Shown here in pieces: positions 8,719-40,767 of a stretch of DNA of 64,000 nucleotides; positions within the stretch are counted from its first letter, which is position 1; each line of letters starts with the position of its first letter. The stretch is from the NCBI RefSeq assembly GCF_016026235.1, contig NZ_CP065613.1; one strand, 5' to 3'. Position numbers and translations under genes: made by a program. A model generated the notes under the pieces. It did no database searches, had not been told where the DNA came from, and saw only the letters and a program-made list of their open reading frames with translations. The DNA comes from Escherichia coli. GTDB taxonomy: Bacteria > Pseudomonadota > Gammaproteobacteria > Enterobacterales > Enterobacteriaceae.

Positions 8719-9113
8719 GCTTTATCGAAGCAAAATAAGTCAGACGATAATTTATCGATAATACTGGTCGGTTTTACATAAATCGACCAGAGAATAAGAT
8801 ATTACTGTTGATGCTTCTGCTAATTCATTATTTATATTTATAATTTCAATTTTATCTATAAAACTAACTATATAAATAAACATAAACATGCCGTTGTGTT
8901 CGCCCTTTGATTAGCAACTCTGGTTTTCTTTCTTAGCTGAACAATCTGGTTATAGCGTGCGGACTGACCGTTAATTTTCTCCATCTTACTGGATAACACA
9001 CCATGAACTGCTACTTTTAAAACACCTGAATGTCAACAGGTTAACTCGTGCCATATCGGGTGATGCTGCCAACTTACTGATTTAGTGTATGATGGTGTTT
9101 TTGAGGTGCTCCA

Positions 9114-9389
9114 GTGGCTTCTGTTTCTATCAGCTGTCCCTCCTGTTCAGCTACTGACGGGGTGGTGCGTAACGGCAAAAGCACCGCCGGACATCAGCGC
9201 TATCTCTGCTCTCACTGCCGTAAAACATGGCAACTGCAGTTCACTTACACCGCTTCTCAACCCGGTACGCACCAGAAAATCATTGATATGGCCATGAATG
9301 GCGTTGGATGCCGAGCAACTGCCCGCATTATGGGCGTTGGCCTCAACACGATTTTACGTCACTTAAAAAACTCAGGCCGCAGTCGGTAA
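9114..9389 (+). CDS. insA: IS1 InsA (transposition inhibitor / N-terminal part of InsAB' transposase)
   Basis: 91-aa [25 protein letters not shown]... Confidence 0.95.
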
Positions 9390-9811
9390 CCTCGCGCATA
9401 CAGCCGGGCAGTGACGTCATCGTCTGCGCGGAAATGGACGAACAGTGGGGCTATGTCGGGGCTAAATCGCGCCAGCGCTGGCTGTTTTACGCGTATGACA
9501 GTCTCCGGAAGACGGTTGTTGCGCACGTATTCGGTGAACGCACTATGGCGACGCTGGGGCGTCTTATGAGCCTGCTGTCACCCTTTGACGTGGTGATATG
9601 GATGACGGATGGCTGGCCGCTGTATGAATCCCGCCTGAAGGGAAAGCTGCACGTAATCAGCAAGCGATATACGCAGCGAATTGAGCGGCATAACCTGAAT
9701 CTGAGGCAGCACCTGGCACGGCTGGGACGGAAGTCGCTGTCGTTCTCAAAATCGGTGGAGCTGCATGACAAAGTCATCGGGCATTATCTGAACATAAAAC
9801 ACTATCAATAA
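9308..9811 (+). CDS. insB: IS1 insB reading frame (expressed as InsAB' transposase by -1 frameshift)
   Basis: 167-aa frame overlapping insA 3' end; AAAAAAC slippery motif near 9364. Confidence 0.9.
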
Positions 9812-9837
9812 GTTGGAGTCATTACCGGATTAGTGTG

Positions 9838-10017
9838 TTACTCGTCTTCATCCTCAAAACGCGCCACGATTCGCTCGCCGGAGTGGTTGGCACGCAGCTC
9901 TTCTGCCACCAGCGCGATTGCCTGGCCGCTGCTCATCCCTTGTGCCATCAGTTCCTGGATCCGCTCGACAGCTTTTTGCTGCTGTTCATGGGTGAGTGAA
10001 GGTAAACCTGCAAACAT
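9838..10017 (-). CDS. yoaH: small protein YoaH (UPF0181)
   Basis: Manual translation of minus strand gives [59 protein letters not shown]; below the track length cutoff. Confidence 0.85.
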
Positions 10018-10090
10018 TGTTAACTCCTGCTAAATTGTTGGCGCTAATTATTTCATGCTACCCGGCACATAGCCAGTAGAGTCAGGACTG

Positions 10091-11452
10091 ATGAAGACGT
10101 TATCTCCCGCTGTGATTACTTTACCCTGGCGTCAGGACGCCGCTGAATTTTATTTCTCCCGCTTAAGCCACCTGCCGTGGGCGATGCTTTTACACTCCGG
10201 CTATGCCGATCATCCGTATAGCCGCTTTGATATTGTGGTCGCCGATCCGATTTGCACTTTAACCACTTTAGGTAAAGAAACCATTGTTAGTGAAAGCGAA
10301 AAACGCACAACGACCACTGATGACCCGCTACAGGTGCTCCAGCAGGTGCTGGATCGCGCAGACATTCGCCCAACGCATAACGAAGATTTGCCATTTCAGG
10401 GCGGCGCACTGGGGTTGTTTGGCTACGATCTGGGCCGCCGTTTTGAGTCACTGCCAGAAATTGCGGAACAAGATATCGTTCTGCCGGATATGGCAGTGGG
10501 TATCTACGATTGGGCGCTCATTGTCGACCACCAGCGTCATACAGTTTCTTTGCTGAGTCATAATGATGTCAATGCCCGTCGGGCCTGGCTGGAAAGCCAG
10601 CAATTCTCGCCGCAGGAAGATTTCACGCTCACTTCCGACTGGCAATCCAATATGACCCGCGAGCAGTACGGCGAAAAATTTCGCCTGGTACAGGAATATC
10701 TGCACAGCGGTGATTGCTATCAGGTGAATCTCGCCCAGCGTTTTCATGCGACCTATTCTGGCGATGAATGGCAGGCATTCCTTCAGCTTAATCAGGCCAA
10801 CCGCGCGCCATTTAGCGCTTTTTTACGTCTTGAACAGGGTGCAATTTTAAGCCTTTCGCCAGAGCGGTTTATTCTTTGTGATAATAGTGAAATCCAGACC
10901 CGCCCGATTAAAGGCACGCTACCACGCCTGCCCGATCCTCAGGAAGATAGCAAACAAGCAGAAAAACTGGCGAACTCAGCGAAAGATCGTGCCGAAAATC
11001 TGATGATTGTCGATTTAATGCGTAATGATATCGGTCGTGTTGCCGTAGCCGGTTCGGTAAAAGTACCAGAGCTCTTCGTGGTGGAACCCTTCCCTGCCGT
11101 GCATCATCTGGTCAGCACTATAACGGCGCGACTACCAGAACAGTTACACGCCAGCGATCTGCTGCGCGCAGCTTTTCCTGGTGGCTCAATAACCGGGGCT
11201 CCGAAAGTACGGGCTATGGAAATTATCGACGAACTGGAACCGCAGCGACGTAATGCCTGGTGCGGCAGCATTGGCTATTTGAGCTTTTGCGGCAACATGG
11301 ATACCAGCATTACTATCCGCACGCTGACTGCCATTAACGGACAAATATACTGCTCTGCGGGCGGTGGAATTGTCGCCGATAGCCAGGAAGAAGCGGAATA
11401 TCAGGAAACTTTTGATAAAGTTAATAAGATATTACGCCAACTGGAGAAGTAA
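10091..11452 (+). CDS. pabB: aminodeoxychorismate synthase component I
   Basis: 453-aa ORF recognised as PabB. Confidence 0.9.
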   Translation: MKTLSPAVITLPWRQDAAEFYFSRLSHLPWAMLLHSGYADHPYSRFDIVVADPICTLTTLGKETIVSESEKRTTTTDDPLQVLQQVLDRADIRPTHNEDLPFQGGALGLFGYDLGRRFESLPEIAEQDIVLPDMAVGIYDWALIVDHQRHTVSLLSHNDVNARRAWLESQQFSPQEDFTLTSDWQSNMTREQYGEKFRLVQEYLHSGDCYQVNLAQRFHATYSGDEWQAFLQLNQANRAPFSAFLRLEQGAILSLSPERFILCDNSEIQTRPIKGTLPRLPDPQEDSKQAEKLANSAKDRAENLMIVDLMRNDIGRVAVAGSVKVPELFVVEPFPAVHHLVSTITARLPEQLHASDLLRAAFPGGSITGAPKVRAMEIIDELEPQRRNAWCGSIGYLSFCGNMDTSITIRTLTAINGQIYCSAGGGIVADSQEEAEYQETFDKVNKILRQLEK

Positions 11453-11455
11453 GAC

Positions 11456-38923: not shown

Positions 38924-39115
38924 ATGTTCGCGCTGGTACTTTTTGTTTGCTACCTGGATGGCGGTTGTGAAGATATTGTTGTGGATGTCTACAACACGGA
39001 ACAGCAGTGTCTTCATTCTATGAGCGATCAACGGATCCGCCAGGGCGGTTGTTTTCCGATTGAGGATTTTATAGATGGTTTCTGGCGACCTGCACAGGAG
39101 TACGGTGATTTTTAA
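38924..39115 (+). CDS. yebW: small protein YebW
   Basis: Recognised as YebW; start taken at MFALVLFVCYLDGGCEDIVVDVYN. Confidence 0.7.
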   Translation: MFALVLFVCYLDGGCEDIVVDVYNTEQQCLHSMSDQRIRQGGCFPIEDFIDGFWRPAQEYGDF

Positions 39116-39772
39116 TTATTGCAATTGCACAAGAGTCAGTTCGCCCCCAAAGACAGCACCGGTATCAATATAATGCAGGTTGCCAATATCCACGCGATGT
39201 CGCAACGGTGTATGACCAAACCAGAAATGATCAGCACCTGTAATTCCCTGCCCTTTTGGGCGTTCACCTAATCGTGAGCGGCTCCACAAGACCTGATGCA
39301 AATCAACGTCCTTTTGCCATTCATAAACATCATCTGGATAATCGGCATGAGCAATAACATGTTTGCCGGTGCGGCTGTGTACTTCAAGAATAAAGGGCAA
39401 ATGCTGACATTTTTCCAGCGCCGTTTTCGCTTGTTTCTGTTGATTATCTGCCAGCGCAATAAACCAGTCGCCGCCATTCATCAACCACAAAGACATCTGC
39501 TGGGATGCCAGCGCATCCATCGCCATCTGTTCATGATTGCCTCTTACCGCACGAACCCAATGTTGTTCCAGTAACTGCAGACAACGTAAACTTTGCGGCC
39601 CACGATCGATAACGTCTCCCACTGAGATAAGTAAATCTCGCCACGGATCAAAACGACAATGCCATAATTTGCGGCGCAACTGCTCAAGACAACCGTGTAT
39701 ATCGCCAGAAAGCCAGATATGTCGCCATTGATGACCCGCAATTCTCTGATAAACGGGCGCAGGCTGTTTCAT
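39116..39772 (-). CDS. pphA: serine/threonine protein phosphatase 1
   Basis: ORF with metallophosphatase motifs (GDIHG, GDVIDRG, GNHE). Confidence 0.9.
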   Translation of the reverse strand: MKQPAPVYQRIAGHQWRHIWLSGDIHGCLEQLRRKLWHCRFDPWRDLLISVGDVIDRGPQSLRCLQLLEQHWVRAVRGNHEQMAMDALASQQMSLWLMNGGDWFIALADNQQKQAKTALEKCQHLPFILEVHSRTGKHVIAHADYPDDVYEWQKDVDLHQVLWSRSRLGERPKGQGITGADHFWFGHTPLRHRVDIGNLHYIDTGAVFGGELTLVQLQ

Positions 39773-39906
39773 CAATATTTTCCTCCCGCGCTAAAGATCA
39801 CATAATCTTAACAAGAATGTTAAAAAACGCTGGACTCAGACAGTAGAGTGTGTGTTATGGTTGACTATAAAGTCAGCGAAGGAAATGCTTCTGGCTTTTA
39901 ACAGAT

Positions 39907-39999
39907 AAAAAGAGACCGAACACGATTCCTGTATTCGGTCCAGGGAAATGGCTCTTGGGAGAGAGCCGTGCGCTAAAAGTTGGCATTAATGCAGGCTTA
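39907..39999 (-). ncRNA. sdsR: sdsR (ryeB) small RNA, 3' body (about nt 11 to end including terminator), separated from its 5' end by IS1
   Basis: Minus-strand sequence matches my recollection of SdsR from UAAGCCUGCAUUAAUGCCAACUUUUAGCGCACGG onward through the terminal hairpin and U-run. Confidence 0.65.
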
Positions 40000-40054
40000 G
40001 GTGATGCTGCCAACTTACTGATTTAGTGTATGATGGTGTTTTTGAGGTGCTCCA

Positions 40055-40330
40055 GTGGCTTCTGTTTCTATCAGCTGTCCCTCCTGTTCAGCTACTGACG
40101 GGGTGGTGCGTAACGGCAAAAGCACCGCCGGACATCAGCGCTATCTCTGCTCTCACTGCCGTAAAACATGGCAACTGCAGTTCACTTACACCGCTTCTCA
40201 ACCCGGTACGCACCAGAAAATCATTGATATGGCCATGAATGGCGTTGGATGCCGGGCAACAGCCCGCATTATGGGCGTTGGCCTCAACACGATTTTACGT
40301 CACTTAAAAAACTCAGGCCGCAGTCGGTAA
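40055..40330 (+). CDS. insA: IS1 InsA
   Basis: 91-aa ORF identical to copy A InsA. Confidence 0.95.
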
Positions 40331-40752
40331 CCTCGCGCATACAGCCGGGCAGTGACGTCATCGTCTGCGCGGAAATGGACGAACAGTGGGGCTATGTCGG
40401 GGCTAAATCGCGCCAGCGCTGGCTGTTTTACGCGTATGACAGTCTCCGGAAGACGGTTGTTGCGCACGTATTCGGTGAACGCACTATGGCGACGCTGGGG
40501 CGTCTTATGAGCCTGCTGTCACCCTTTGACGTGGTGATATGGATGACGGATGGCTGGCCGCTGTATGAATCCCGCCTGAAGGGAAAGCTGCACGTAATCA
40601 GCAAGCGATATACGCAGCGAATTGAGCGGCATAACCTGAATCTGAGGCAGCACCTGGCACGGCTGGGACGGAAGTCGCTGTCGTTCTCAAAATCGGTGGA
40701 GCTGCATGACAAAGTCATCGGGCATTATCTGAACATAAAACACTATCAATAA
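40249..40752 (+). CDS. insB: IS1 insB reading frame (InsAB' by -1 frameshift)
   Basis: 167-aa frame; differs from copy A at two nucleotides (40255, 40261). Confidence 0.9.
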
Positions 40753-40767
40753 GTTGGAGTCATTACC

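Follow-up and report, generated by a model that had tools for sequence, protein, structure and literature searches.

Two probably independent IS1 insertions in the native core chromosome of an enteroinvasive Escherichia coli O143:H26 lineage

Introduction

Direct repeats of the insertion sequence (IS) IS1 flank whole segments of DNA in Tn9 and in the argF segment Tn2901, which lies between IS1B and IS1C in Escherichia coli K-12. IS1-flanked transposons reportedly transpose at a frequency that falls steeply with their length (a result attributed to Chandler, Clerget and Galas, 1982), and IS1 is also said to delete the DNA adjacent to it (an observation credited to Reif and Saedler, 1975). Here we analyse a stretch of 64,000 nucleotides (nt) of the E. 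coli contig NZ_CP065613.1 (assembly GCF_016026235.1), called the window throughout, in which two IS1 copies in direct orientation, IS1#1 and IS1#2, bracket about 30 kb of chromosomal genes. The two copies very probably represent independent insertions in an otherwise native, collinear core segment of an IS-rich enteroinvasive E. coli (EIEC) O143:H26 chromosome similar to that of strain 4608-58.

IS1 elements of the IS1A/IS1R type, as in E. coli K-12 and on plasmid R100, are 768 bp long, end in imperfect inverted repeats of ∼23 bp and carry insA and insB', from which the 232-amino acid (aa) protein InsAB' is made through a -1 frameshift at an A6C motif. The role of this motif in frameshifting is described in PMC12903888, the source also of the hyperactive element IS1Efs, where insB' by itself is regarded as a non-coding open reading frame (ORF) and the target duplications of IS1 are given as 8 or 9 bp. 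IS insertions coupled to a deletion, without a target duplication, have been named 'IS-Del' events, and deletions and duplications bounded by IS elements are well documented (PMC11708052). Of the two sites discussed below, one lies in the ryeA/ryeB locus, known as a hot spot at which DNA of horizontal origin inserts according to Balbontin et al. 2008, going by the part of PMC7380047 in which that study is cited.

The kind of feature described here is not new, and both IS1 sites are already present, apparently undiscussed, in public assemblies. Compared with the IS expansion and gene decay of Shigella and EIEC (e.g. IS1 truncates the lac operon in a sister EIEC; PMC4319576), the window is a typical sample with nothing distinctive: it holds three IS elements in 64 kb (two IS1 and one ISSso6) and small deletions (the loss of yoaC and a copD-yebY fusion). 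Only two points are mildly unusual, a 16-bp target duplication and the hit in sdsR/ryeA.

Results

Anatomy of the two IS1 copies

Both copies are on the plus strand and 768 bp long, at 9059-9826 (IS1#1) and 40000-40767 (IS1#2), the coordinates given in a preliminary description made from the sequence alone. They share the terminal inverted repeats (IRL, GGTGATGCTGCCAACTTACTGAT; IRR, as reverse complement, GGTAATGACTCCAACTTATTGAT), so that length and ends are those of IS1. A repeat finder returned no long repeat family in the window other than this pair, whose starts are 30,941 bp apart, with 30,173 bp of unique DNA between the copies. The two are identical at 766 of 768 bases in direct orientation (99.7%), which over 768 bp far exceeds chance. 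One mismatch is at IS1 position 256 (A at 9314 in IS1#1, G at 40255 in IS1#2) and the other at position 262 (T at 9320, A at 40261); as the preliminary description had it, there are no more. Both copies are 99.5-99.9% identical to IS1A-family copies (as annotated by PGAP) in E. coli HS, BL12, FDAARGOS_943 and the O111:H8 strain 8E.

The insA genes, at 9114-9389 (+) in IS1#1 and 40055-40330 (+) in IS1#2, encode the same 91-aa InsA. The A6C frameshift motif (AAAAAAC; 9365-9371 and 40306-40312) starts at IS1 position 307, that is 45-51 nt downstream of the two single-nucleotide polymorphisms (SNPs). Read in the insA frame, each SNP is synonymous, and both precede the A6C site, so that the copies specify one and the same InsA and InsAB': rebuilt through a -1 frameshift, InsAB' is 232 aa long in each, from insA and insB' overlapping in the manner of IS1. 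The insB ORFs as annotated begin with MPSNC (IS1#1) and MPGNS (IS1#2), which had been reported as a change of InsB' residues; the ORFs do read this way, but the change is formal only, since the stretch is upstream of the frameshift and thus outside the transposase. By their predicted products the two copies are functionally equivalent, and annotators should not take such 'InsB' differences as protein variants. With respect to the IS1A/IS1R type, the window copies differ only in their location, the two silent SNPs and the target duplication (16 bp for IS1#2, none for IS1#1).

Collinearity of the bracketed interval

The whole window was aligned to the annotated region 1,880,000-1,960,000 of K-12 MG1655, and is collinear with 1,884,994-1,946,494 at ∼99% identity. 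No IS1 is present at either site in MG1655 by this alignment, in agreement with the preliminary description. Among complete RefSeq genomes FDAARGOS_943 comes closest (99.9% over 23 kb) and is EIEC-like by virtue of its ipaH3 prophage; it is collinear with the window at 99.94-99.96% identity, has an intact yoaC, and carries no IS1 at either site.

The bracketed interval (9827-39999) comprises 30,173 bp of native core DNA, reaching from yoaH through pphA into the 3' part of sdsR, which agrees with the ∼30.2 kb of core genes reported earlier. From the K-12 alignment its genes are yoaH, pabB, nudL, sdaA, pdeD, yoaE, manXYZ, yobD, mntP, rlmA, cspC, yobF and yebO, followed by mgrB, yobH, kdgR, yebQ, htpX, prc, proQ, msrC, letAB, rsmF, yebV, yebW and pphA. 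Apart from a single inserted ISSso6, the interval and K-12 are collinear.

Recurrence of the insertions in one EIEC lineage

Two contigs of the EIEC O143:H26 strain 4608-58 (JTCO; PMC4319576) match the window at 100%: JTCO01000124.1 corresponds to positions 1-15368 and spans IS1#1 with its rare allele (see below), and JTCO01000006.1 corresponds to 24313-40324 and includes one junction of IS1#2. Strain ATM460, which is also O143:H26 and belongs to EIEC clade 1, has been assembled from PacBio and Illumina data (PMC8354535); its gap-free match to the window, at 99.97%, runs from 26212 to 46946 and takes in IS1#2 with its two junctions. Other assemblies break at the elements: contigs of LSGI01, DAEAOI01 and SRR13627086 end within IS1#1 at the same junction, and contigs of LSGL01 and ERR926423 end within IS1#2, with one junction each. 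The IS1 sites thus account for contig breaks in drafts of this lineage. The window and 4608-58 are the only sequences in which both copies were seen together. Exact matches of the YoaA and LetB proteins led to the draft assemblies, whereas the PabB, PdeD and NudL alleles proved too common for this purpose. These matches place the source of the window in the EIEC O143:H26 lineage, close to 4608-58, and the preliminary description's guess at an IS1-rich, Shigella-like background was a good one. Judged by SNPs of the genomic backbone, the nearest Shigella is S. dysenteriae type 2 (PMC4319576).

ATM460 has an additional IS3-family element of ∼1.26 kb near kdgR/yobH (window ∼26212-26220; 642-1899 of the ATM460 locus), which is absent from the window; the IS content therefore still varies within O143:H26.

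Allele types of the two copies

The preliminary description had called the copies independent isoforms, not a fresh duplication. To see how common the two allele types are, 61-mers covering positions 256 and 262 were searched for exact matches among 20,395 RefSeq E. coli records: the IS1#2 allele (G256/A262) is found in 4,263 of them and the IS1#1 allele (A256/T262) in one. Five other full-length IS1 copies were compared by position, and all five have T262; four of the five have G256/T262, a few other differences aside. IS1#1, an element of the IS1A type, accordingly belongs with the T262 copies and has in A256 a rare change of its own, and IS1#2 is of the common A262 type. Since the allele types differ (A262 versus T262 with the rare A256), the pair probably does not derive from one fresh duplication, as had been proposed. 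The junctions of the two insertions could serve as markers of the O143:H26 lineage, as could the rare A256 of IS1#1.

IS1#1 and the loss of yoaC

IS1#1 stands in the yoaB-yoaH spacer (∼8719-9837; K-12 1893712-1894552), in which the GC content is 32.5%, against 50.5% window-wide. Its left flank (9050-9058) is GCCATATCG, equal to K-12 1894043-1894051, and its right flank (9827-9835) is GGATTAGTG; comparison of the two reveals no target duplication. Relative to K-12 and FDAARGOS_943, 488 bp of ancestral DNA, including all of yoaC (DUF1889), are replaced by IS1#1 (the missing stretch is 14053-14540 of the fetched K-12 region). The left flank marks the leftward end of the missing stretch. Neither this replacement without duplication nor the 16-bp duplication and split sdsR/ryeA at IS1#2 nor ISSso6 featured in the preliminary description.

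The right junction has a counterpart in E. coli BL12: there an IS1 in the same orientation is flanked by a 9-bp duplication of GGATTAGTG, its right junction is the same as that in the window, and yoaC is intact. IS1#1 most likely started in the same way: by simple insertion, IS1 would have entered GGATTAGTG, immediately downstream of yoaH, where an IS1 has inserted independently in BL12 as well. A loss of 497 bp to its left would have followed, made up of the 488 bp of unique DNA with yoaC and one copy of the target duplication. The loss may have come about by an IS1-mediated adjacent deletion (intramolecular replicative transposition), by an insertion coupled to the deletion, or by homologous recombination with a second IS1 that had inserted upstream of yoaC; the order of events given here is one we infer from the junctions. 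Like adjacent deletions and IS-Del events, IS1#1 has one junction of the ancestral type, no target duplication and a loss of 488 bp adjacent to one end. Recombination between two neighbouring IS1 copies in a spacer that is a hot spot would explain it equally well.

This spacer is a recurrent target of IS1, with at least five distinct sites, in both orientations and in unrelated strains (HS, BL12, X14-3, the LR-06/PE15 type and the CP056412 type). In HS the element is within yoaC with the duplication AACGCACTG, in X14-3 it has a 9-bp duplication of its own (TGATATTAG), and at a further locus of the same spacer (L016) the duplication is CAAATTAA. From a summary of BLAST matches X14-3 seemed to share the left junction of IS1#1; it does not, as its IS1 is 21 bp further to the right and has the separate duplication just mentioned.

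IS1#2 and its 16-bp target duplication

IS1#2 is flanked by perfect copies of a 16-bp sequence, CATTAATGCAGGCTTA, at 39984-39999 on the left and 40768-40783 on the right. This sequence occurs once in K-12 (43182-43197 of the fetched region), and the repeat is therefore a true target duplication. From its junctions IS1#2 reads as a simple insertion into the sdsR/ryeA locus. Independent assemblies have the same structure, that of ATM460 from PacBio and Illumina data among them, and it is therefore not an artefact.

Among the fetched loci, seven further IS1 insertions have duplications of 8-9 bp, the size described for IS1. Neither copy in the window has one of this size (IS1#1 has none and IS1#2 has 16 bp); assignment to IS1 does not depend on it. 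A literature search for IS1 duplications longer than 9 bp returned only a general range of 1-14 bp for IS elements. Duplications of 10-14 bp at IS1 have reportedly been described (the report is ascribed to Iida et al., 1985). We also considered that sdsR was chosen through its likeness to an end of IS1, with which it shares the 9-mer AAGTTGGCA; this was rejected, as 11% of random window positions score equally.

Disruption of the sdsR/ryeA locus

By the K-12 annotation the target of IS1#2 is the convergent small RNA (sRNA) pair sdsR (ryeB) and ryeA (sraC), between pphA and yebY. Rfam finds SdsR_RyeB (RF00111) at 39907-40012 on the minus strand with 102.8 bits (gathering score 38), and finds SraC_RyeA (RF00101) in two pieces, 39903-40049 and 40732-40831, with 122.2 and 51.4 bits (gathering score 37). 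The 16 duplicated bases are nt 12-27 of SdsR. To the left of the element remains the body of sdsR (nt 12-104) with its terminator (39907-39999, minus strand; Rfam and K-12 annotation), severed from the sigma-S promoter; a terminator-like stem is at 39913-39941. To the right is the 5' fragment of sdsR, nt 1-27 (40768-40794, minus strand), with the promoter just beyond it, and transcription from this promoter would now enter the right end of IS1. On the plus strand, the 5' part of ryeA (∼131 nt; Rfam and K-12 annotation) is at 39869-39999 and the rest at 40768-40924. With IS1#2 in between, sdsR/ryeA is no longer a contiguous transcription unit with its own promoter.

In K-12 the sigma-S promoter of sdsR drives SdsR and, through read-through, pphA, for which it is the main source of expression (PMC6610125). 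The pphA gene (39116-39772, minus strand; K-12 annotation and ORF) now has this promoter on the far side of IS1#2. Because IS1#2 parts the promoter from both the SdsR body and pphA, SdsR and RyeA have presumably lost their function and pphA is probably expressed at a reduced level. An outward hybrid promoter (TTGGCA in IRL, a spacing of 17 nt and ATTAAT) that could drive a 5'-truncated SdsR was considered and set aside as speculation: it is missing from the output of a consensus scan, and its -10 element has no A at the second position.

Other mobile DNA is found in the same place. In FDAARGOS_943 the ipaH3 prophage is in the 3' end of sdsR (from position 36105 of the fetched locus), and its junction corresponds to window position 39937, ∼60 bp from the IS1#2 site; in the O111:H8 strain 8E prophage DNA (with nleC) is at the sdsR locus. 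Together with IS1#2, these prophages indicate that the locus draws both integrase- and transposase-mediated insertions. IS1#2 is like the prophages of the ryeA/ryeB hot spot in that mobile DNA interrupts the same bidirectional sRNA locus. The prophages, however, enter through an integrase att site located in the final ∼23 bp of ryeB, whereas IS1#2 is a transposase-mediated insertion ∼60 bp away, at nt 12-27 of SdsR; and IS1#2 would destroy the sRNA, unlike the prophages, which reconstitute it.

Among the genomes searched, we found no IS1 in sdsR outside this lineage. Two elements near sdsR looked like candidates for the same site and were rejected: the IS1 of JNQH498 is located within pphA, and that of O111:H8 strain 8E is within the prophage, beside nleC.

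Discussion

Two independent IS1 insertions in native DNA are what the anatomy, the junctions, the alleles, the lineage and the collinearity, all of them observed, add up to, and we hold this reading with high confidence. The same observations bear on the possibility that the whole unit of 31.7 kb is a true composite transposon of IS1, moved or moving as a block in the manner of Tn9 or Tn2901. The preliminary description spoke of a composite-transposon-like architecture, and the geometry is indeed of that type: two intact IS1 copies in direct orientation surround a segment, the outer IRL and IRR and the transposase frame are intact, and composites with IS1 in direct orientation are known, Tn9 and the argF transposon reportedly among them. 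As in those transposons, the repeats offer homology through which DNA may be deleted or duplicated, and in principle they could be the outer ends of a transposon. What does not stand is a composite origin. The interior is not a passenger, as both it and the outside flanks are in the order of K-12 and FDAARGOS_943; a relative at 99.94% identity has the same genes in place without either IS1; and the outer flanks (GCCATATCG on the left, CATTAATGC on the right) share no target duplication for the unit as a whole. With a native interior in its ancestral position, unlike outer flanks and a separate history at each junction (IS1#2 has its own duplication and IS1#1 its own deletion scar), the unit bears no sign of movement, in contrast to Tn9 and Tn2901, and is not a composite by origin. 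It is also far larger than efficient IS1 composites, and at 31.7 kb, given the length dependence said to hold for them, would move very rarely. We regard a genuine composite transposon as very improbable. Still less credible, and practically dismissed here, is an error of assembly at one site or both, through a repeat that was collapsed or put in the wrong place, or else a single copy that was duplicated very recently. IS1 is highly multicopy and drafts of the lineage do break at it, but two mismatches set the copies apart and their four flanks are all distinct; IS1#1, with the rare A256 included, is spanned at 100% by a contig of 4608-58 from independent Illumina data, and the ATM460 assembly spans IS1#2 with both junctions.

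Some points weigh against the main reading. A duplication of 16 bp exceeds the 8-9 bp norm, so that IS1#2 is not a textbook insertion; the ATM460 evidence covers IS1#2 and not IS1#1, which is outside the matching stretch; and all three routes proposed for IS1#1 give the same junctions and are not separable from one sequence. A further point concerns stability. The preliminary description suggested that recombination between the repeats deletes or amplifies the block, and the pair could in principle serve as a RecA substrate for deletion or duplication of the 30.9-kb unit, with 766 of 768 bases identical in direct orientation at a distance of 30,941 bp and with IS-bounded rearrangements well known elsewhere. 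To our knowledge, no gene of the Keio essential set is in the interval (tsaB lies outside). That the pair is a working recombination unit in the population is nevertheless unlikely. We built synthetic queries for the deletion junction (yoaB-IS1-yebY) and the duplication junction (sdsR-IS1-yoaH) and searched 5,426 complete E. coli genomes at a query coverage of at least 80%; neither junction was found in any of them, a result of little power, as none of these genomes carries both insertions, and hence weak evidence of stability. Several further assemblies of the lineage have one insertion junction or the other, though only 4608-58 has been seen with both, and recurrence therefore says little on the stability of the pair. 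Loss of pabB, manXYZ, prc, proQ and letAB would likely be costly. Nothing shows that deletion or duplication of the unit has occurred, and of the earlier suggestion only the principle stands.

A different question is whether the insertion in sdsR is neutral. Selection might have favoured it as a pathoadaptive loss, in which the toxin-antitoxin sRNAs SdsR and RyeA and the read-through into pphA are inactivated, as the insertion is common to several assemblies of the lineage, prophages occupy the same locus in FDAARGOS_943 (ipaH3) and O111:H8 8E, the locus is a hot spot by the account cited above, and SdsR and pphA both depend on the sdsR promoter. Among the genomes searched, however, IS1 is in sdsR in one lineage only. 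Drift, moreover, is said to fix many neutral or mildly deleterious IS insertions in EIEC and Shigella. We consider selected inactivation unlikely. A more specific version, in which the sdsR IS1 is non-neutral and convergent with the prophage occupation of the locus in related EIEC, and the 16-bp duplication reflects an unusually wide staggered cut by IS1 at a structured sRNA, is in our view quite improbable. If the disruption of sdsR has a phenotype, one more sRNA would join the pathoadaptive losses of Shigella and EIEC.

Two independent insertions into native DNA thus remain the preferred reading, and their importance is small beyond bookkeeping. The window illustrates the erosion of an EIEC chromosome by IS1: yoaC is gone, sdsR/ryeA is split and pphA is cut off from its main promoter, and the pair leaves a 30.9-kb direct-repeat unit that is open to loss or amplification.

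Other features of the window

The ISSso6 element (IS110 family) within the bracketed interval is at 15316-16832, between the stop codons of pdeD and yoaE. This copy is 1,517 bp long, against 1,518 bp for intact copies, and its transposase is therefore frameshifted and split into ORFs of 378 and 118 aa. K-12 and FDAARGOS_943 have no ISSso6 at this site, and drafts of the lineage break there.

To the right of the interval, between copD (yebZ) and yebY, 80 bp have been deleted between 18-bp direct repeats (∼41294-41311), taking away the 3' end of copD. The result is an in-frame CopD-YebY fusion ORF of 381 aa at 40952-42097 (minus strand); ∼20 E. coli contigs of the lineage at NCBI encode exactly this fusion protein. 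Rfam also reports two features that are expected from K-12 and are apparently intact, a cspA-thermoregulator-like match in the cspC/yobF region (23956-24416, minus strand) and sroD (3024-3109, minus strand).

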